NCBI GenBank assembly: GCA_963748625.1
Contig: CAVVJT010000007.1
Span: 1,024,001 to 1,088,000 of the forward strand
DNA: 64,000 nucleotides
From: an uncultured Chloroflexia bacterium
Lineage (GTDB): Bacteria > Chloroflexota > Limnocylindria > Limnocylindrales > CSP1-4
Direction of reading: 5' to 3'
In this document: in pieces, positions 54,859-63,695 of the stretch
How the letters are laid out: each line of letters starts with the position of its first letter
How positions within the stretch are numbered: the first letter of the stretch is position 1
Program-made: the position numbers and the translations under genes
The notes under the pieces: model-generated
The model's database searches: none
The model's input: only the letters and a program-made list of their open reading frames with translations
Told to the model about the DNA's origin: nothing

Positions 54859-55338
54859 TCAGCCGGACTCGGGCTGCACGGAGCTGCGCCGCAGGGCGAG
54901 TCCTGCGACCACCAGGGCCACGACAACCGTGACCGCGTAGCCCACGCACCAGGCGCAGATCGCCTCGATCACGAACAGCTCCAGGAACGTGAGATACGCG
55001 ACGAAGCCCGTGCCGAGCAGGAGCAGCAGGTAGGCGACCAGCAGCGCCCGGCGGTCCGTCCGCAGCCACCAGACCACCGCAAGCGCCACCAGCAGCACGG
55101 AGCCGGCGAGGCCGTACACGGCAACAGGAATCCCGAGGATCTCGGCGTACTCCGACGCGGCCACGAGATCGCAGCCGTGGGAAGGACCGCAGACGGCGTT
55201 CGTACCGAGCAGGCGCACGGCCGTCAGGTAGCCGGCGATCGCGGCCCCCGCCAGCGTGACAAGCACCAGGAGCAGGCCGAGCGGACCCCTGTGGACCCGC
55301 CCGATCGGTGCGCGAGCGGCGACGGGGTCCGCCGTCAG
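54859..55338 (-). CDS. vitamin K epoxide reductase (VKOR) family protein, possible CTG start
   Basis: CGPSHGC loop cysteines, S.YA..LGIPV..G, CAWC active site. Confidence 0.9.
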   Translation of the reverse strand: MTADPVAARAPIGRVHRGPLGLLLVLVTLAGAAIAGYLTAVRLLGTNAVCGPSHGCDLVAASEYAEILGIPVAVYGLAGSVLLVALAVVWWLRTDRRALLVAYLLLLLGTGFVAYLTFLELFVIEAICAWCVGYAVTVVVALVVAGLALRRSSVQPESG

Positions 55339-56159
55339 GGCTGGGTGCTCGCCGGCGCGCTGCTCTCGGCCAGCGCGGCGTCGATCAGCGCGGACCACTC
55401 CGCCGCGGACTTGAGCCCGACGTACTGCGTGCCGTTGAGATAGATGGTGGGCGTCGAGTTGATGCCCAGCTGGGTCATGGCGACATCCGTGATGGCGTTC
55501 ACGGAGTCGAGGGCCGGCTGGCCGTCGATGCAGCTCGTGAGCGCCGCCTCGTCAAGGCCCGCGGCGACACCGATCTGGATCACGCGCTCCTTGCGGAAGC
55601 CGCCGGTGTTCTCGCCGTCCTGGTTGTTGAAGACCCAGTGGCTGTAGTCGTAGTACTTGCCCTGTTCGTTGGCGCAGAACGCGCCGAGGGCCGGCGTGAG
55701 GGACTCGTCGCCACCGCGGCCGAGCAGGTTGATGTCGTGGCTCAGCACCTGCATCTGGCCCGTGGCCACGTACTTGTTGACGAGCGAGGGCAGCACGTCG
55801 AGCGCGTTCCTGGCGCACACCGGGCACTGGTAGTCGCCGTACACCTCCATGACCACGGGCGCGCCGTCCTGGCCGAGCGTGGTGCCGCTCACCAGCTCTG
55901 CGGGGTAGCTGAAGCCCGGATCCTTGAGCGTGCCCGTCACCTTGCCGCCCAGCTGGTTGACGGCGACGAAGCCGACGATGAGCACGCCCACCACCACGCC
56001 CACGATGGTCATGGTCCTGGTGTTGATCCAGGACGAGCCGCCGCCGGAGCCCGACTGGCCCGACTTGCGCGCCGCGCGGTCGGCCTCGAACCGGTTCTGG
56101 CGCTCGGCGGCGCGGCGCTCTCTGCGGGTCGTCGTGGGAGTGTTCTTGCTGGCGCTCAG
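55335..56159 (-). CDS. membrane-anchored DsbA-family thiol-disulfide oxidoreductase, probable CTG start
   Basis: TM anchor, DYQCPVC, GINSTPT cis-Pro loop. GGAGG lies 6 nt before an in-frame CTG at 56159. Confidence 0.9.
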   Translation of the reverse strand: MSASKNTPTTTRRERRAAERQNRFEADRAARKSGQSGSGGGSSWINTRTMTIVGVVVGVLIVGFVAVNQLGGKVTGTLKDPGFSYPAELVSGTTLGQDGAPVVMEVYGDYQCPVCARNALDVLPSLVNKYVATGQMQVLSHDINLLGRGGDESLTPALGAFCANEQGKYYDYSHWVFNNQDGENTGGFRKERVIQIGVAAGLDEAALTSCIDGQPALDSVNAITDVAMTQLGINSTPTIYLNGTQYVGLKSAAEWSALIDAALAESSAPASTQP

Positions 56160-56310
56160 GGGAGGCCTCCGGATGGTGGTGCCACGAATGGGCGGGTTGG
56201 TGGCGTTCAGCGTGACGGCAGAGCCGAAGGCGACATTGTGCGGCAAACCCGCCGGTCAGGCCGCGAGGCATGTATTCAAGCCCTCTACGACGTGCATTCA
56301 GGCCTTCTAC

Positions 56311-56327
56311 ATGATACCGTGTCTCAT
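56311..56327 (+). promoter_or_regulatory. Fur/Zur-type box overlapping an extended -10
   Basis: ATGATAC-CGT-GTCTCAT (6/7 dyad) contains TGnTACCGT and abuts ATG 56328. Confidence 0.65.
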
Positions 56328-57272
56328 ATGGAACCCATCGAGCCATCCCCATCCGGATCATCGGGCAGCGCGGCCGGAGCGCACCCGTCCGCTGCCCCCG
56401 TCGCCGGAGCCCACGATCATGGGCACAGCCACGACAGCCCGCTCGATGCCGCGCACGCCCTCGCGCACGCGGATGTCTGGCTGAGCGACGTCTCGGCGGG
56501 GTACGGCGACCGTGTCGCCCTGGAGCACGTGTCGATCGCCGTCGAGCCCGGCAGCCTGCTCGCGGTGGTGGGACCCAACGGGGCCGGCAAGAGCACCCTG
56601 CTCAAACTCATGGCCGGGCTCGTGACGCCGTGGACGGGACGGATCCAGATCCTGGGAGCCCCCGCGGGCCGCGAGGCCCGGCGGGTTGCCTACGTCCCCC
56701 AGGCGGAGCTCGTGGACTGGCAGTTCCCGGTGACCGTCGAGGACGTCGTGATGATGGGCCGGTTCCCGCGCCTCGGGCCGGTCCGCCGTCCCGGTCGCGA
56801 CGACCGCCGCGCTGTCGTGGATGCGCTCGAGATGGTCGGCATGGCCCACCACCTGCGCACCCAGATCGGGCGCCTCTCGGGTGGCCAGCGCCGGCGGGTC
56901 TTCCTCGCCAGGGCGCTCGCGGCTGAGCCCGACCTGTTCCTCCTCGACGAGCCGGTCACCGGCATCGATCCCACCACCCAGGAGCTCCTCATGGACATCC
57001 TGGAGGGGCAGGCCGCGCGGGGCAAGACCGTCGTTGCCACCACGCATGACCTCGCCTGTGCCGCGGGCCGCTTCCAGCAGGTGCTCGCGGTGAACCGCAC
57101 CGTGGTTGCCTACGGCCCGTCGAACATCGTGCTCGACGCGAACGTCCTCGCGGCGGCCTACGGTGGGCACCTGCTCATGCTGGAGGGCCAGACCGTCCTG
57201 CTCGACGACGCGCACCACCACGACGATGCCGCGCCCGGCGAGCGGCACTTCCACGAGCAGGGCCAGAAGTGA
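56328..57272 (+). CDS. metal (Zn/Mn/Fe) ABC transporter ATP-binding protein
   Basis: GPNGAGKST, YVPQ, LSGGQRRR, LLDEP; His-rich termini. Confidence 0.93.
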   Translation: MEPIEPSPSGSSGSAAGAHPSAAPVAGAHDHGHSHDSPLDAAHALAHADVWLSDVSAGYGDRVALEHVSIAVEPGSLLAVVGPNGAGKSTLLKLMAGLVTPWTGRIQILGAPAGREARRVAYVPQAELVDWQFPVTVEDVVMMGRFPRLGPVRRPGRDDRRAVVDALEMVGMAHHLRTQIGRLSGGQRRRVFLARALAAEPDLFLLDEPVTGIDPTTQELLMDILEGQAARGKTVVATTHDLACAAGRFQQVLAVNRTVVAYGPSNIVLDANVLAAAYGGHLLMLEGQTVLLDDAHHHDDAAPGERHFHEQGQK

Positions 57273-58177
57273 TGGACATCCTGCTGGAACCTCTTGCCTC
57301 GCCGATCATGCAGCGAGCGCTGCTGGCATCGGCCATGGTCGGCATCGTGTGCGCCATCGTCGGCACCTACGTGGTCCTGCGCGGGATCGCCTTCATCGGC
57401 GACGCCATCGCGCACGCGGGCTTCCCGGGTGTGGTCGTGGCCTACATGCTCGGCTTCCCCTACTACATCGGGGCGGCAGTGGCCGCGGTCCTCACCGCCC
57501 TCGCGATCGGGGTGGTCACCAAGCGTGGCGGCATCCGCCAGGACACCGCCATCGGCGTGCTCTTCGCAGGCACGTTCGCGCTCGGCGTCTTCCTGTTCAG
57601 CGCCATCGACGGCTACGTCGCCGACCTGTTCAGCTTCCTCTTCGGCAATGTCCTCGCCATCGGCACGGCGGACCTCGTGGCCCTGCTGGTCCTGGGATCC
57701 GGCGTCATCGTGGTGATCGGGATCCTCTGGAAAGAGCTGCTCTACGCCACGTTCGATCCGCTGGGGGCCGCCGCCTCCGGCATCAACGTGGACCGCCTCG
57801 AGTACCTGTTCCTCGCCCTGGTCGCCGTGACCATCGTGGTGAGCCTCCAGGCCGTGGGCATCATCCTGGTGGTGGCGATGCTGATCACGCCGGCGGCCAC
57901 CGCCCAGCTGCTCACCGTGCGCTTCGTCCGGACCATGCTCGTGGCTGCCGTCGTGGGCATCACCAGCTCGATCATCGGCCTGTATGCGTCGTACTGGCTG
58001 GACGTCGCCAGCGGTGCCACGATCGTCCTGGTCCAGACCTCGATGTTCGTCCTTGCGCTCCTGTTCGGGCCCCGCGGGCTCCTCGCGCGGCGGGGCGGGC
58101 ATGGCGTCGCGAACCGGTCGGAGCGGGAGGCCCTTGAGGCCTTGGAGGCCGCGGAAGGCGCGGAAGGCGCGGCATGA
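57272..58177 (+). CDS. metal ABC transporter permease (ZnuB/MntC class)
   Basis: [34 protein letters not shown]. Confidence 0.93.
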
Positions 58178-58653
58178 GCCCGACGCACCACCACGTGCGC
58201 CAAGCCACCGAGCACGCGGGCGACCACATGCTCGATGCGCTCGGCCGGGCGGGCGAGCGGGTCACCGAACCGCGCCGCGCCGTGGCACAGCTGGTCGCCG
58301 CGCATGACGGCCACTTCACCGCGGCCGACCTGGTCGAGGAAGCGCGAGACGCGTACCCGCGGCTGGGCAGGGCGACGGTCTTCCGGGCCCTCGACCTGTT
58401 CGCTGGTCTCGGGCTCGTCGAGCGGATCGACATGCCCGATGGCGGCCACGCCTACGTGGCCTGCGACACCACCCATCACCACCACCTGATCTGCACGTCG
58501 TGCGGACGGGCGCTCGACGTGGACGACCCGGGCCTGGCCGAGGTGCTCGAACGCATCGGCGCACGCGCGGACTTCGCCGTCACGGCGCATCGGCTTGAGC
58601 TGTTCGGCGTCTGTGCCCCCTGCAGGGTGAGCGCCTCCAGGGAGCGAACATGA
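58174..58653 (+). CDS. Fur-family transcriptional regulator (Zur-like)
   Basis: T.PR..V, ATVFRAL, HHHHLICTSCG, GVCAPC. Confidence 0.93.
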   Translation: MSPTHHHVRQATEHAGDHMLDALGRAGERVTEPRRAVAQLVAAHDGHFTAADLVEEARDAYPRLGRATVFRALDLFAGLGLVERIDMPDGGHAYVACDTTHHHHLICTSCGRALDVDDPGLAEVLERIGARADFAVTAHRLELFGVCAPCRVSASRERT

Positions 58654-59591
58654 CCGGCTCGTCCATCACCCGCCGGGGCGCGGGAACCGCCATCGCGATG
58701 GCAGTCCTGCTGGCCGCGCTCGTCGGAGCCTGCGGGGGCAGCGCGCCGACGCCGGCGGCCGGGGGCGCGCCCGTCAAGGTCGTCGCCACCACCACCGTCT
58801 TCGCCGACCTCGTCGCCCAGGTGGGCGGCGACCGCGTCGAGGTCTCCAGCCTCGTGCCCAAGGGCGGCGAGGTCCACACCTTCGACCCGACGCCCAGCGA
58901 CATCCGACGCGTGGTGGAGGCGGACCTGATCGTCCGCAACGGCCTGGGCCTGGACGACTGGCTCGCCGCGCTCGTGGCGGATGCGGGCGCGACCGCCCCT
59001 GTCGTGGTCCTCGGGGAGGACCTCGACGGCGTGGACTACCTCGGCGGCGATCCCGATCACGGCGAGGAGGTCAACCCGCACCTCTGGCTCGACGTGGCCT
59101 ACGCGAAGGCCTACGTCGGGCGCATCGCCGCGGCCCTGTCGGCTGCCGATCCTGACGCCGCCGCGGGCTACCAGGAGCGGGCAGCGGCCTATGGCGCTGA
59201 GCTTGCGACACTGGACACGGAGATCCGGGAGCGCCTGGGCGCCATCCCGGAGGCCGACCGGCTCGTCATCTCCTTCCACGATGCCTTCCCGTACTTCGCC
59301 CGCGCCTACGGGCTGGTGATCGACGGCACGATCGTGGAGGCACCGGGCCAGGATCCGAGCGCGGGCCAGATCGCGGACCTCGTCGCCGCGATCGACGACA
59401 AGGGGATCAGCGCGATCCTGGCCGAGGTCCAGTTCAACGACGAGCTGGCCCAGGCGATCGCGGCCGAGACGGATGCCGTGGTCGTGAGCGACCTGTACAC
59501 GGACACATTGGGTGACGCCCCCCTGGACACGTATGGCGCGATCATGCGCTCCAACGTGGACCGCATCGTGGAGGCGCTCTCGGGCAGGTAG
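58650..59591 (+). CDS. metal ABC transporter substrate-binding lipoprotein (ZnuA/TroA class)
   Basis: Lipobox VGAC; ligands in EVHTFDP, NPHLW, FHDAF, YTD. Confidence 0.93.
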   Translation: MTGSSITRRGAGTAIAMAVLLAALVGACGGSAPTPAAGGAPVKVVATTTVFADLVAQVGGDRVEVSSLVPKGGEVHTFDPTPSDIRRVVEADLIVRNGLGLDDWLAALVADAGATAPVVVLGEDLDGVDYLGGDPDHGEEVNPHLWLDVAYAKAYVGRIAAALSAADPDAAAGYQERAAAYGAELATLDTEIRERLGAIPEADRLVISFHDAFPYFARAYGLVIDGTIVEAPGQDPSAGQIADLVAAIDDKGISAILAEVQFNDELAQAIAAETDAVVVSDLYTDTLGDAPLDTYGAIMRSNVDRIVEALSGR

Positions 59592-59795
59592 GCCACATGG
59601 CCCGGGAGTGCGGCCAGGGCACGCGGTACCCCGGTCCCACGCTCCCGCCAGGACCATCGACTGCCCGGCAGGTGAAACCTTCGGGCGCTTGGGCGCCTCG
59701 GAGTCTCGCCACACACTTCCGGGAGTTGCCATGACCCACGCCCTGCGTCCCCATTCCCTCTGCAGCCCCTCGCCGCGATCCGCGGACAGGCCGGC

Positions 59796-60500
59796 ATGCG
59801 CCTGAGCCCCACCCTCCTGGTCGCCCTCGGCGCCATCGTCACGCTCGTGGCGCTCGCCATCACCGACCAGGTCGTCCCCGCATCCGATCCCCGCACCGCC
59901 GAGGTGCGGCCGTGGATCGCCGCGCGGGCGCTCGGTGTCACCGCGTACCTGCTCCTCGCCTTCGAGGTGGCCCTTGGACTCGTGTTGAGCCATCCGCGCA
60001 ACACGTCCGCGTGGCGCAAGACCAGGCAGATCCTCCCGTGGCACGAGCTGGTCACGGTCTTCCTGGGCGCATTCCTTGCGCTCCACATCGTCCTGCTCGC
60101 GGTGGACGAGTTCGCGGGCGTCGGCTGGATCGGCGTGTTCGTCCCGGGCAGCGGCACCTACCGCCCGCCCGCGATCGCCGTCGGTTCGGTGGCGATGTAC
60201 GCCCTGGTCATCACCGCGGTGACCGCGAAGTGGGCGCGCCTCCTGCCATCAGGCTGGTGGCTCAGGATCCACCGATTTGCCGCCGTCGCCTTCCTGCTCA
60301 GCTGGGTCCACGCGATCCTCGCGGGCACCGATGGGGGCGCCCTGACCCCGCTCTACCTCGCCACGGGCCTGCTGATCCTTGCGCTCGGCACGCACCGCTG
60401 GTGGACCTCAAAGGTCCGCCCCCAGCGTTCGTCGCCTGCGGGCGATGCGCCCCTCGCCCTCGCCCGGTCCCGGCCGGCGTCGTCCCCGGAGGAGTCGTGA
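59796..60500 (+). CDS. ferric reductase-like (MsrQ-like) transmembrane cytochrome b; may start at 59731 via a frameshift
   Basis: About 6 TM helices with four His (WHE, LHI, IHR, VHA); W..ARA.G and W..IHR motifs. Confidence 0.85.
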   Translation: MRLSPTLLVALGAIVTLVALAITDQVVPASDPRTAEVRPWIAARALGVTAYLLLAFEVALGLVLSHPRNTSAWRKTRQILPWHELVTVFLGAFLALHIVLLAVDEFAGVGWIGVFVPGSGTYRPPAIAVGSVAMYALVITAVTAKWARLLPSGWWLRIHRFAAVAFLLSWVHAILAGTDGGALTPLYLATGLLILALGTHRWWTSKVRPQRSSPAGDAPLALARSRPASSPEES

Positions 60501-61009
60501 TGAACCGAGAACTAGTGACCAGGTGGGCGCGGCGCGGCGCCGTCCTCGTGACGACTGCGGCGGTGCTCGTCGTGGGCGTGAGCACGGTGCAGGTGGCGGC
60601 TGACTGGCGCAAGGCGTCGGCGCCGCTCGACACCGCCCCTGTGGGCATGAGCACCATCGAGGACGACTTCACCGCCGAGACCGGGCGTACGGATGAGCTC
60701 TCGGGCCAGATCGACGACGTTGCCGCGCAGATCTCGGACCTCAAGGTCGCACTCATCGCCGCGAACGGGTCCATGGCAACCGACCAGGAGCAGGCGACGG
60801 TCCTCCAGGCACAGCTCGAGAGCTCCGCCGCGAAGCTCAAGACCCTCCAGCGCCAGCTCAAGGCAGCGCAACGGCGCTTGACCGAGCTCAACCGCGCGGC
60901 CGCACGGCAAGCGGAGCTCAACCGCCAGGGTGGCGCGCGGAGCGCGGGCTCCGGGACTTCGACGCGGCCCCCGGCCGATGACGACGATGGGGAGGAGGAC
61001 GATGACTGA
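60500..61009 (+). CDS. membrane-anchored or exported coiled-coil protein
   Basis: GGAGG SD; ARR plus hydrophobic helix, long heptad region, acidic tail. Confidence 0.8.
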   Translation: MNRELVTRWARRGAVLVTTAAVLVVGVSTVQVAADWRKASAPLDTAPVGMSTIEDDFTAETGRTDELSGQIDDVAAQISDLKVALIAANGSMATDQEQATVLQAQLESSAAKLKTLQRQLKAAQRRLTELNRAAARQAELNRQGGARSAGSGTSTRPPADDDDGEEDDD

Positions 61010-61598
61010 GCGCGCCCTCCCCCAGGTCTCCGTCGGGACCAGGGCAACGACCGCAGCCGGGGTCGCCGCGCCGGGTGTGGTGGCGCCGGGTGTCGCCGCA
61101 GGGACGCGGCCGGCTGCCGGTGGGGTGGCGCGACCCGCCGTCCGCCGCAACGAGGCCATCCTGACCATGCCGGCACGCGCCGGGATCCTGCTCGGCGCCT
61201 CCGCCGCCGTCTACGCGGTCACGCTGGCCGGGGTCGCGGTCATGCAGTCCGAGACGGATGCCCAGGTGAGCGCTGCGCGCGCGCCGTACGTGGATGAGGT
61301 CACGCAGCTCCGAGCGGCCAACGATGAGCTCGAGCGCGTCCTGCTCCGGGCCGACGCCCAGGCGCGGGCGCTCGCTGCCGACTACGGCGCGGTCGGGGCG
61401 ACGGTGACCGACTACCAGGCACGCCTGGACTCGCTCGCCACGCTCGTGGCCGAGGTCCAGGGCTCGGCGGCGGCGCTGCCCGCCCGGATCAAGCTGCCGA
61501 GCGTCAGCATGCGCGGCGCGATCGCCGGCAGCTCCCGCTCGTCACGTGGCGGCTCGGCGCCGTCGACCAATGCCACGTCAGGCGCCTCCGGAGGCTGA
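61002..61598 (+). CDS. membrane-anchored coiled-coil protein with C-terminal SGAS motif (candidate flavinylation substrate)
   Basis: GGAGG SD; TM helix, heptad region, Ser/Gly linker, ends NATSGASGG. Confidence 0.8.
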   Translation: MTERALPQVSVGTRATTAAGVAAPGVVAPGVAAGTRPAAGGVARPAVRRNEAILTMPARAGILLGASAAVYAVTLAGVAVMQSETDAQVSAARAPYVDEVTQLRAANDELERVLLRADAQARALAADYGAVGATVTDYQARLDSLATLVAEVQGSAAALPARIKLPSVSMRGAIAGSSRSSRGGSAPSTNATSGASGG

Positions 61599-62607
61599 TC
61601 CCGTCATCACGGATCCTCGGGCCGCAAGCCCCCAAGGCGACGGCCCGGACAGGATCGTCGCCTTCTCCGCGCGCGCGCTCGGGTCCACGCTCCGGCTCAG
61701 CGTGCGAGACCACGCCGGCGCCGTGCCCGGGCCGGAGATCAGCGAGGCGGCCGCCCGAGCCTGGGACGCGGTGCGCGCGGAGTTCGACGCCGTGGACCGC
61801 GCCCTGTCCCGCTTCCGCGATGACTCGGAGCTGACCCTGCTCAACCGCCTTGCCGGCACCGGTGCGGTGGTCCCCGTGTCGCGGCGCACGCGGATCGCGC
61901 TGGCCACCGCAGATCGCGCCAGCCGCGTCACCGGCAACCGGTTCGACGCGAGCATCCTGGGCGCCCTCGAGCGCATCGGCGAGCAGGGGGCTGACCTCGG
62001 GACGGCGTCCAGCGCCGAGCTCGCCGTCCCTATCGAGGAACGGACCAGCCGCGCGCATGTCCCACCGGTGCCGCTCGACATGGGCGGGATCGGCAAGGGG
62101 CTGGCGTTGCGCTGGGCCGCAGCCGCCGCACGGCCGTATCTGCCCGACGAAGCGGGCATGCTGCTCGAGGCGGGCGGTGACATCGTCGCGGCCGGCACAC
62201 CCCTCCAGGAGGGCTGGCGCGTCGGGGTCGAGGACCCGGTCGCCGATCCCGGTGCGGAGGCGCCGCCGCTGGTGGTGCTCGACCTGCCCGATGGCGCGGT
62301 GGCCACCTCATCGGTCCGCGTGCGCAACTGGCTGGGACCCGACGGACGGCCCGTTCACCACCTCGTCGATCCTGCCACGCGCGAGCCGGCCCGGACGGGT
62401 TTGGTCGCCGTGACGGTCGCCCGGTCCGACGCCGCATGGGCGGAGATCTGGAGCAAGGCGCTGTTCGTGCTCGGACGGGACCGGATTGCGGACGAGGCGC
62501 GCGCCCGCGGGCTTGCCGCTTGGTGGGTCGATGATCGCGGGCGCCTCGGGATGACCCCCGAGGCCCGCATCCGCACGCTCTGGGCGGCCGAGGACCGTCT
62601 CGGCTAG
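61570..62607 (+). CDS. apbE: FAD:protein FMN transferase (start uncertain)
   Basis: ALGS, LSRFRDDSEL..LN, RFDAS, DMGGIGKG, AGGD, VATSS, HHLVDP. Confidence 0.93.
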   Translation: MPRQAPPEADPVITDPRAASPQGDGPDRIVAFSARALGSTLRLSVRDHAGAVPGPEISEAAARAWDAVRAEFDAVDRALSRFRDDSELTLLNRLAGTGAVVPVSRRTRIALATADRASRVTGNRFDASILGALERIGEQGADLGTASSAELAVPIEERTSRAHVPPVPLDMGGIGKGLALRWAAAAARPYLPDEAGMLLEAGGDIVAAGTPLQEGWRVGVEDPVADPGAEAPPLVVLDLPDGAVATSSVRVRNWLGPDGRPVHHLVDPATREPARTGLVAVTVARSDAAWAEIWSKALFVLGRDRIADEARARGLAAWWVDDRGRLGMTPEARIRTLWAAEDRLG

Positions 62608-62663
62608 GGCGAACTGGTGCAGCCCTGGGCCGCCAAGCCCGCGCCGGTCAGACCATCGCCGGG

Positions 62664-63695
62664 TCAGCTGGGGTGCTGGCGCTCCGCCGCCGCGGCCGCC
62701 TCGGCCTCTGCGCGCAGCTGGGAGGGCGGTGTCTCGCCCAAGGCGATCGCAAGCTCATCGAGCGTCGGATAGCCCTCGCGCGCCCCGGCCCGCGTCACGC
62801 TGATGCTGGCCGCCACGACGGCGCGCCGCGCTGCCGACTCGAGGTCCAGGCCACCGGCGAGCGCCGCGGCAAGGGCACCGTTGAGCGCGTCGCCCGCACC
62901 CGTCGCGTCGATCGCCTTGACCTTCGGCGCCTTGATGTCGATGACGGGACCGTCCCGCTGGACGAGCGCGGCACCCGAGGCTCCGAGGGTCACGAAGATC
63001 GCCCTGGCGGCACCCGGGCCGTCCGCCGTCGCCTCGAGCAGGAGGCGTGCGGATTTGATCGGATCGTCCGTGGCCGGCGTGGGCCTCCCGGCGCGCTTCG
63101 CGTCCTCCGTCACGAGGAGGGCCAGCTCACCGCGGTTGGGGACGACGACATCGGCCAGGCCGATGACCGAGCGGTCCAGGCCGCCGGCCGGCGCCGGATT
63201 GAGGATCGTCCAGGCCCCGCCCTGGCGGCCGATGCGGAGCGCCTCACGAGCGGCGTCCGTGGAGATCTCGTGGGTGACGATGACGGCGTCGCCGGTGTGC
63301 GGATTGAGCCGGCCGAGTGCGTCGCGCACGTGGGCGGCGGTAAGGCCCGCGTTGGCGCCCGGGGCGACCGCGATCTGATTCTCGGCCTTGGCGTCCACCA
63401 GGATCAGGGCGACGCCCGTCGCCGTGTGATCAAGCGTCACGAGGACATCGGTGCCGATCCCCTCGCGGGCGAGCGCCTGCCGCGCATCCATGGCGAACTC
63501 GTCATCACCCAGCGCCGCGACAAGCATGACCGGGACGCCGAGGCGCGCGGCAGCCACCGCCTGGTTGCCGCCCTTGCCGCCGTGGAACCGTGTGAATGTC
63601 CCGCCCAGCACCGTCTCGCCCGGCTGGGGCAGACGCTCGGTCTGCACCACCAGGTCGATGTTGACGGACCCGACGACCAGGACTCGACCGCTCAC
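62664..63695 (-). CDS. rbsK: ribokinase (PfkB family)
   Basis: VGSVNIDL, GGKGGNQA.AAARLG, ILNPAP, DATGAGD. Confidence 0.9.
   Translation of the reverse strand: MSGRVLVVGSVNIDLVVQTERLPQPGETVLGGTFTRFHGGKGGNQAVAAARLGVPVMLVAALGDDEFAMDARQALAREGIGTDVLVTLDHTATGVALILVDAKAENQIAVAPGANAGLTAAHVRDALGRLNPHTGDAVIVTHEISTDAAREALRIGRQGGAWTILNPAPAGGLDRSVIGLADVVVPNRGELALLVTEDAKRAGRPTPATDDPIKSARLLLEATADGPGAARAIFVTLGASGAALVQRDGPVIDIKAPKVKAIDATGAGDALNGALAAALAGGLDLESAARRAVVAASISVTRAGAREGYPTLDELAIALGETPPSQLRAEAEAAAAAERQHPS

Follow-up and report, generated by a model that had tools for sequence, protein, structure and literature searches.

The window analysed here is a 64,000-nucleotide (nt) stretch of DNA from an uncultured Chloroflexia bacterium (contig CAVVJT010000007.1, positions 1,024,001 to 1,088,000). 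It contains four consecutive forward-strand genes that an earlier note had proposed to encode an electron conduit built on covalently bound flavin. The first, G1 (59796-60500), encodes a 234-residue MsrQ-like or ferric-reductase-like cytochrome b of family PF01794. It is followed by genes for two anchored stalk proteins, one helical with an acidic tail (G2, 60500-61009) and one with the C-terminal tail on which this analysis turns (G3, 61002-61598). The last gene, G4 (PF02424), specifies an ApbE-family FAD:protein FMN transferase (FAD, flavin adenine dinucleotide; FMN, flavin mononucleotide) and runs from 61570 to 62607, with an alternative GTG start at 61546. Both the list of open reading frames (ORFs) and the raw sequence bear out the tight packing described in that note. 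The ends of the four genes overlap or abut: the ATG of G2 shares one base with the stop codon of G1, G2 and G3 overlap by 8 nt, and the start of apbE overlaps the tail codons of G3, including the motif discussed below. The start that had been assigned to the cytochrome, 59731, must be moved to 59796, because the ATG at the former position lies in a different frame from G1, one that closes at 59805.

G1 matches the Pfam family Ferric_reduct (PF01794) just above threshold, with an E-value of 6.1e-7 and 30 bits against a cut-off of 28. By inspection it has about six hydrophobic segments, and the family scan found no NAD(P)H or FAD domain in it. Five histidines, His66, His83, His97, His159 and His172, are invariant in 40 homologues. 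The pairs 83/97 and 159/172 sit on two helices with spacings of 14 and 13 residues, which we take to match the bis-haem pattern of the NOX/FRE proteins. A profile search of the PDB with G1 gave no match. The Pfam assignment and the four conserved histidines uphold the description of G1 as a four-His ferric-reductase-like membrane protein. We read it as a predicted membrane-spanning, two-haem cytochrome b of the MsrQ-like type. Its position, three genes from apbE, is also that of a PF01794 gene near apbE, the arrangement by which MsrQ-like flavinylation systems are recognized.

For G2, no Pfam or NCBIfam family reaches its cut-off, and the coiled-coil-type matches in Pfam and NCBIfam are weak. 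Its heptad periodicity rises to a z of 3.3. An AlphaFold2 model based on a 42-sequence alignment (mean predicted local distance difference test score 76.7, predicted template modelling score 0.37) contains a membrane helix at residues 3-39, a short linker, one continuous helix at 50-148 and a disordered tail. At 0.15 nm per residue, the roughly 99 residues of the second helix would span about 15 nm. In the window the tail reads DDDDGEEDDD (60977-61006), and the acidic end that the earlier note had remarked on is conserved across the 42 homologues: their last 15 residues hold a mean of 5.8 Asp or Glu, 25 of them include a His there and 38 end in Asp. Two arginines directly precede the membrane helix in 37 of the 42, and RR or RK in 41. 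The looser pattern RRx## occurs in 35 and the canonical twin-arginine translocation (Tat) motif [ST]RRxF[LIV] in none. From these sequences we read G2 as oriented N-in/C-out. In one same-genus sub-clade (L035, L036, L039), G2 also bears TTT[GR]ASG just before its acidic end, so that both stalks may carry a candidate site there.

G3 belongs to no Pfam or NCBIfam family. It starts with a conserved MTERxLP and continues with a membrane helix in which small residues abound, a pair of helical stretches, a conserved GSAAALPxRIxLPxV block and a flexible Ser/Gly/Thr linker that leads into the tail, ...NATSGASGG. The Ser/Gly linker and terminal ATSGASGG were thus correctly identified at the outset. The proposal of coiled coils in both stalks holds moderately for G2, with its weak profile matches, heptad signal and one-helix model, and less well for G3, whose two shorter helical stretches show periodicity with a z of 2.0 or less. 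Similarly, both window proteins have an RR ahead of the hydrophobic helix, but it is a conserved feature of G2 only; a twin arginine lies next to the helix in 0 of 42 G3 homologues. Export of a flavinylated stalk by the Tat pathway, as had been suggested, is therefore not supported for G3. The two stalks were also compared as possible paralogues, for which hhalign returned a probability of 44%.

To define the G3 family, we ran a profile search over 1.84 billion representatives clustered at 50% identity. It returned 330 representatives at an E-value of 1e-3 or better, 275 of them at 1e-10 or better. Among the matches listed, all are named 'hypothetical protein' or are unnamed and none has a Pfam domain, and the ESM Atlas offered only unnamed Chloroflexota clusters. 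The positive-inside rule places the C-terminus of G3 outside the membrane in 126 of 140 sequences, with 12 ties and 2 of opposite orientation. In 11 of the 150 best-scoring representatives the tail is flanked by two cysteines, which is consistent with an oxidizing compartment.

The conserved part of G3 is its end. An alignment of 42 homologues, drawn from two families, has just four invariant residues, Tyr71, Pro95, Pro166 and Ser196; Ala195 and Gly197 are at least 90% conserved in it. We then examined the tails of the best 150 of the 330 representatives. The pattern [ST]x[AGP]S occurs within the last nine residues of 143, and the other seven are fragmentary sequences, ORFs in the wrong frame or an unrelated giant protein. 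The stricter [ST]xAS is found in 126 and the canonical [ST]GA[ST] in 83. The consensus is [H/N/Q]-A-T-T-G-A-S-G, followed by 0-4 residues. Counting back from the serine, which is present in all 143, position -1 is A in 126 and G in 16, -2 is G in 98, -3 is T in 130 and S in 13, -4 is T in 101, -5 is A in 109, and -6 is H in 63, N in 26 and Q in 14. A second sample agreed, with the tail kept in 119 of the 119 homologues listed. Lack of conservation of this motif had been named as grounds for abandoning the flavinylation idea; the opposite was found.

In the window, the predicted flavinylation motif is N190-A-T-S-G-A-S196 (61569-61589), with Ser196 (61587-61589) as the proposed FMN acceptor. Its S-G-A-S is an exact [S/T]-G-A-[S/T] core with a serine in the acceptor position. 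Work on ApbE substrates gives the canonical motif as D-x-x-[S/T]-G-A-[S/T] and finds its seven residues sufficient for labelling (PMC12052999). According to the same source, the Asp is 'strictly conserved', yet changing it to Ala had a minor effect; Gly-to-Ala and Ala-to-Val each cut labelling by about half, and Ser was a worse acceptor than Thr. G3 therefore has the same core and the same final acceptor as the canonical substrates (NqrC, RnfG and FMN_bind proteins) and the engineered Flavin-tag. It differs from them in having H, N or Q in place of Asp at -6, in always using Ser where the ApbEs studied prefer Thr, and in continuing past the motif with only a G and 0-4 further residues. With the core right, the Asp replaced and Ser always the acceptor, the tail is a good but variant match to the ApbE motif. 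Taken with the gene order described below, it makes flavinylation of Ser196 probable in our judgement.

We also considered a ubiquitin-like or sulfur-carrier role for the ASGG end and rejected it, since roughly one tail in two lacks a GG ending. As a separate observation, the end of G3 is dual-coding: if apbE starts at the ATG at 61570, the tail motif and stop codon (61569-61598) also serve as the first apbE codons. The conserved end of G2 is dual-coding in the same way, its terminal Asp-Asp-stop overlapping the Met-Thr-Glu start of G3 (GATGACTGA).

The enzyme expected to act on such a motif is encoded next door. The operon ApbE matches PF02424 with an E-value of 5.1e-42 and 144.7 bits against a cut-off of 25.6. 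Its residues 51-325 align with residues 30-313 of Escherichia coli ApbE (4xgw; E 5.3e-16), which covers the whole catalytic domain and includes the GG[IV]GKG, ATS[SG] and H-x-[IVL]-DP stretches. In a 22-sequence tree it falls in a clade of its own (support 99/98), sister (98/97) to the clade of FMN_bind-linked ApbEs. As far as can be told from the sequence, this adjacent, dedicated paralogue is the only plausible modifying enzyme in the operon. A fourth ApbE clade (100/99) also exists in the family (L154, L155, L156, L158, L160), and a simple scan for motifs upstream of its genes returned nothing.

Neither in the window nor in homologues does the operon ApbE have a signal peptide, a lipobox or any hydrophobic stretch before its domain. 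The domain begins about 10-45 residues after any possible start, and in one relative (L026) the ApbE match begins just nine codons after the in-frame stop, leaving no room for a signal peptide. The earlier claim of a signal-less ApbE thus stands, but the feature is not peculiar to this operon. All three ApbE genes of the genome lack a signal peptide, and no hydrophobic 15-mer (Kyte-Doolittle value above 1.45) precedes the domain in any of the 21 ApbE paralogue N-termini examined, which come from 10 genomes of the family. We read the signal-less ApbE as a trait of the lineage. Cytosolic ApbE enzymes occur in Klebsiella pneumoniae as well (PMC12052999).

If the tail is the substrate of this ApbE, the genes should travel together, and absence of such linkage elsewhere had been set as a test that could refute the idea. 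We collected 80 species-level loci by G1 alignment, with 5-kb flanks. G1 and G2 are present in all 80, G3 in 79 and ApbE, following G3, in 74. Four of the six loci without ApbE are contig ends; at L126 the gene has truly been lost, and L096 lacks G3 too. At two further loci, L046 and L048, G3 likewise has no adjacent ApbE, and both genomes have other ApbE genes elsewhere. Within the genus, the order G1-G2-G3 is kept at 30 of 30 loci, with ApbE next at 29 and the exception at a contig edge. The same order recurs in more distant genera and in a second family, and across the class Limnocylindria as a whole, whose members here are uncultured soil and freshwater Chloroflexota. Apart from a few bins with other labels (for example L052, L096 and L110), the relatives are metagenome-assembled genomes of Chloroflexota or Candidatus Limnocylindrales.

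The G3 profile matched 16 of 401 genomes drawn across the phylum. Of these draws, 11 of 23 other genomes of the same family and 4 of the 16 from a second family within the class gave a match, and none did in roughly 80 other families sampled. Of five family genomes in which G3 was not found, four have no orthologous G1 either; in the fifth, G1 lies 917 nt from a contig end.

The same genome contains a second version of this arrangement. A paralogous operon on the minus strand (L004, G000:C7:150389-154177) again has four genes in a row, encoding a 100-residue anchored protein whose acidic, His-containing tail ends GGDDDEHEGEHEGDDD, a 136-residue anchored Pro/Thr-rich protein ending TRTRQSGGKP, a signal-less ApbE and a four-His Ferric_reduct-like protein. 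Its cytochrome and its ApbE are each 32% identical to G1 and G4, and the four histidines align with those of G1. Of 24 same-genus genomes, 15 encode the L004-type tail protein; an acidic-tailed gene was found upstream at 12 of its 16 loci, and its T-[RKQ]-Q-S-G tail is seen in 120 of the 120 homologues listed. Two independent families thus pair an acidic tail and a T-x-x-S-G tail with a private ApbE and cytochrome, which suggests that the serine tail is what the ApbE is for. An OmpR-type response regulator lies divergently beside this second operon.

Canonical systems are present as well. The genome has two pairs in which an MsrQ-like protein with FAD/NAD domains accompanies an anchored FMN_bind protein (L005, G000:C4:313160-316546, and L002, G000:C7:731888-735109). 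The motifs of these FMN_bind proteins are DGLSGATYTS and DVISGATWTS. The start of a signal-less ApbE gene overlaps the stop codon of the gene with DGLSGATYTS, and one canonical pair has no ApbE of its own. These are the two FMN_bind genes of the genome, and they lie outside our operon, in which a Pfam scan found no FMN_bind, DUF2271 or DUF3570 gene and no PF04205 (FMN_bind) match in G2 or G3.

This composition can be compared with that of the closest known systems. MsrQ-like flavinylation clusters (Meheust et al. 2021, eLife, PMC8238504) likewise place a PF01794 two-haem protein beside apbE and are assigned the same role, passing electrons from the cell to an extracytosolic flavin, with some linked to iron assimilation. 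Unlike those clusters as described there, ours encodes two anchored helical proteins and has neither an FMN_bind gene nor an NAD domain. That survey retained only clusters in which ApbE or an FMN_bind, DUF2271 or DUF3570 protein had a predicted signal peptide or lipobox. Our operon would fail the filter because its ApbE is signal-less and it has none of the other three genes. As all ApbEs examined in this lineage lack signals although their canonical substrates are anchored outside, the signal-peptide filter points to a blind spot that extends across the lineage.

Other systems share single features with G3. FMN_red proteins carry one or two motifs on an unstructured C-terminal extension too, and Ser/Thr-dependent flavinylation of that extension has been demonstrated in vitro (Huang et al. 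2024, mSystems, PMC11334425). In the description given there, the tail folds back on a conserved non-covalent flavin pocket of a folded dimer. G3, by contrast, is membrane-anchored, has no recognizable flavin-binding fold and bears its motif within the last 3-8 residues. In Listeria, a single-membrane bacterium, the ApbE-like enzyme FmnB installs covalent FMN on PplA, and there, as in systems with soluble flavin shuttles, flavins likewise move electrons from the membrane to external ferric iron (PMC9973259).

PplA is a lipoprotein with folded FMN_bind domains, and its electrons come from a dedicated NADH dehydrogenase and quinone. In our operon the proposed donor is instead a cytochrome b with two haems, and a tail predicted to be disordered would hold the flavin. 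A search of the available articles for the G3 family, and for flavinylation in Chloroflexota or Limnocylindria, found nothing relevant.

Given these results, our best reading is that G3 represents a new class of ApbE substrate, with FMN on a flexible tail that is fed by an MsrQ-like cytochrome b. Such a putative flavinylation-type conduit, with its site on an unstructured tail, is well supported by the motif, the gene order and the paralogous operon. ApbE would move FMN from FAD onto the invariant Ser196. Electrons would pass from the quinol pool or a cytoplasmic donor through the two haems of G1 to the tethered FMN, which would swing outward as a captive flavin shuttle and reduce an external acceptor. 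We regard the chances that the operon forms such an extracytoplasmic conduit, with its flavin on a flexible tail rather than in a folded FMN-binding domain, as evenly balanced.

The genes upstream suggest what the acceptor might be. A metal-uptake operon precedes G1 on the same strand and consists of an ABC ATPase (about 56343-57272, from the family scan), an ABC-3 permease (57269-58177; Pfam ABC-3, 1e-77), a Fur-family regulator (58174-58653; Pfam FUR, 5.6e-27) and a ZnuA-type binding lipoprotein (58650-59591; Pfam ZnuA, 9.9e-79). The earlier note had drawn attention to this neighborhood, and it is conserved: within the 5-kb flanks, same-strand ZnuA, Fur and ABC-3 genes lie upstream of G1 at 67, 66 and 64 of the 80 loci, respectively. 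Because a Fur gene and a ZnuA-type ABC operon precede most of these loci, a link between the operon and metal uptake is likely. Given the conserved association with a regulator of the Fur family and an importer of the ZnuA/MntC type, reductive mobilization of Fe(III) or Mn(III/IV) for uptake is the most likely role. The acidic, His-bearing tail of G2 would keep metal cations near the flavin, and reduced Fe or Mn would then be taken up by the adjacent importer. Both MsrQ-like and PepSY-like flavinylation clusters have been proposed to act as assimilatory iron reductases (PMC8238504). We nevertheless rate the metal-reduction role lower than the conduit itself.

A more elaborate version of this scheme addresses where the flavin is added. 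The operon ApbE has no export signal while the G3 tail is predicted to lie outside, which weighs against our reading: either modification would precede translocation or ApbE would leave the cell by some other route. This genome's anchored FMN_bind proteins of the canonical kind pose the same puzzle of enzyme and substrate location. Since no ApbE examined in the lineage has an export signal, flavinylation might take place in the cytoplasm, followed by export of the flavin-bearing tail; our literature search found no description of an ApbE substrate exported in this way. In its full form, the scheme dispenses with a flavin-binding fold and has FMN esterified to the last Ser on the disordered tail of a stalk about 15 nm long, flavinylated before translocation. 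The tail would swing from the outer haem of the cytochrome to insoluble or chelated Fe(III) or Mn(III/IV), which the G2 tail would catch and feed to the importer, and ApbE specificity would reach beyond [S/T]GA[S/T]. We offer this combination tentatively, as a possibility on the unlikely side.

If these proposals hold, they would matter in several ways. Known ApbE substrates keep the flavin in a folded domain or a membrane subunit. With seven residues at the tip of a disordered tail as its one recognizable flavin feature, the conserved G3 family would widen the range of flavinylation substrates and provide a natural counterpart of the engineered Flavin-tag. The second pair, in which a T-R-Q-S-G tail has an ApbE to itself, would show ApbE enzymes to have diversified in specificity beyond [S/T]GA[S/T]. 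For abundant uncultured Chloroflexota of soil and freshwater, the conduit would be a way to reduce and acquire metals without losing soluble shuttles.

Covalent FMN on G3 is a prediction and the assembly of G1 with G2 and G3 a proposal, and other points weigh against flavinylation of the tail. The Asp at -6 is missing, and Asp is not among the six commonest residues at that position in the 143 tails. Position -2 departs from Gly in nearly a third of those tails, and in the species-level sample Gly occupies it in only 31 of 74; of the others, 37 have T, S, R or K there, and A also occurs. The T-R-Q-S-G tail of the paralogue strays further still from [ST]GA[ST], and G3 is kept without an adjacent ApbE at three loci (L046, L048 and L126). 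The tail could, then, be a docking site, a site of some other Ser modification or a cell-wall signal, with ApbE serving the FMN_bind proteins and G2 and G3 acting as structural or assembly partners of the cytochrome. The predicted separation of a cytoplasmic ApbE from an external tail, and the canonical MsrQ-like/FMN_bind pair that has no ApbE of its own, would both fit such an arrangement. However, both tail families adjoin their own ApbE paralogue, the exact [S/T]-G-A-[S/T] is found in the window and in more than half of the 150 representatives, the one invariant tail residue is the acceptor position, and the operon encodes no other modifying enzyme. We consider this explanation unlikely.

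A similar caution applies to the metal role. Metal genes are absent within 5 kb at about 13 of the 80 loci, and synteny within a single class could partly reflect shared ancestry. By NCBIfam, the importer type is ambiguous between the zinc system AztABC and the manganese system MntABC, with all matches below cut-off. The best of these are AztC for the binding protein and AztB for the permease; the regulator is closest to Fur, also below cut-off. The third metal ligand of the ZnuA-type protein is apparently a His, as read from its sequence. The importer may therefore be specific for zinc, which is not redox-active. A flavinylated conduit might then serve another acceptor, such as envelope repair or redox enzymes, oxygen or peroxide, or humics and quinones, with Fur and ZnuA linked to it by ancestry or zinc-dependent regulation. 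E. coli MsrQ functions in methionine sulfoxide repair (PMC8238504), and our operon has a promoter-like element and leader ORF of its own, apart from the ABC genes. Yet metal genes remain upstream of G1 even in distant loci whose internal order is rearranged, the conserved acidic, His-bearing tail of G2 is typical of cation binding, and the operon contains no MsrP-like or other reductase gene. We think a non-metal acceptor improbable, to about the same degree as a tail that ApbE does not modify.

Finally, a flavinylated G3 tail might lie in the cytoplasm and feed the inner haem of G1, replacing the NAD/FAD domain of other MsrQ-like proteins, as the signal-less ApbE, the lack of an NAD(P)H or FAD domain in G1 and the cytosolic ApbEs of K. 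pneumoniae (PMC12052999) would allow, but this is very unlikely in view of the positive-inside result for G3, the same orientation read for G2, the Cys-flanked tails and the canonical anchored FMN_bind proteins of this genome, which also pair with a signal-less ApbE.

The 204-nt gap between the ABC genes and G1 is itself conserved. It contains a promoter-like element (59673-59699) made of TGAAACC (59673-59679) and GnCTC (59695-59699), with fixed spacing and a variable spacer. GAAAC and G.CTC are invariant in an alignment of 62 loci, and CTC follows GAAAC at a distance of 26 nt in almost all of the 75 loci compared. Downstream of it, a short upstream ORF of 24 codons (59731-59805), the origin of the cytochrome start corrected above, follows a Shine-Dalgarno sequence, GGGAG, at 59721-59725, and its stop overlaps the start of G1. 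At 68 of 75 loci an upstream ORF stands in this one frame relation to G1 (distance to the ATG of G1 mod 3 = 2). Its end lies 10 nt beyond the first base of that ATG at 54 loci and 1 nt beyond it at 11, while the peptides, of 17-32 residues, are poorly conserved in sequence. We read the leader as an alternative-sigma-type promoter with a translationally coupled leader ORF; the element is presumably of the extracytoplasmic function (ECF) sigma type.

A riboswitch in the leader was rejected, with RNAalifold on 62 sequences giving 0 pairs and Rfam giving only chance-level matches (E above 2). A scan of 56100-62800 for sigma-70 promoters and terminators found nothing relevant, and a search for inverted repeats in both intergenic regions turned up nothing like a Fur or Zur box. 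Within the genus, a GGACCATCG block is also conserved at 59651-59659.

The pattern TGAAACC-N15-16-GnCTC occurs four times in the genome, against 0 for a reversed control, and these sites may make up a small regulon. The three additional copies lie at G000:C4:296639 (L149), C7:994261 (L150) and C10:1233771 (L152). The C4 copy precedes a gene for a signal-anchored, very acidic, His-containing protein of 225 residues without a Pfam family.

The surroundings of the operon offer a few further observations. Downstream of it, a pfkB-family sugar kinase (Pfam PfkB) is encoded on the opposite strand. At the other end, the ABC ATPase has a His-rich N-terminal extension (about 56343-56480; ...AGAHDHGHSHDSPLDAAHALAHAD...) before its nucleotide-binding domain. 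Adjoining the metal-uptake genes on the minus strand (54859-56246), we could read from the translations a VKOR-like membrane protein with CxxxxC and CxxC motifs and a DsbA-like thioredoxin-fold protein with CPVC.

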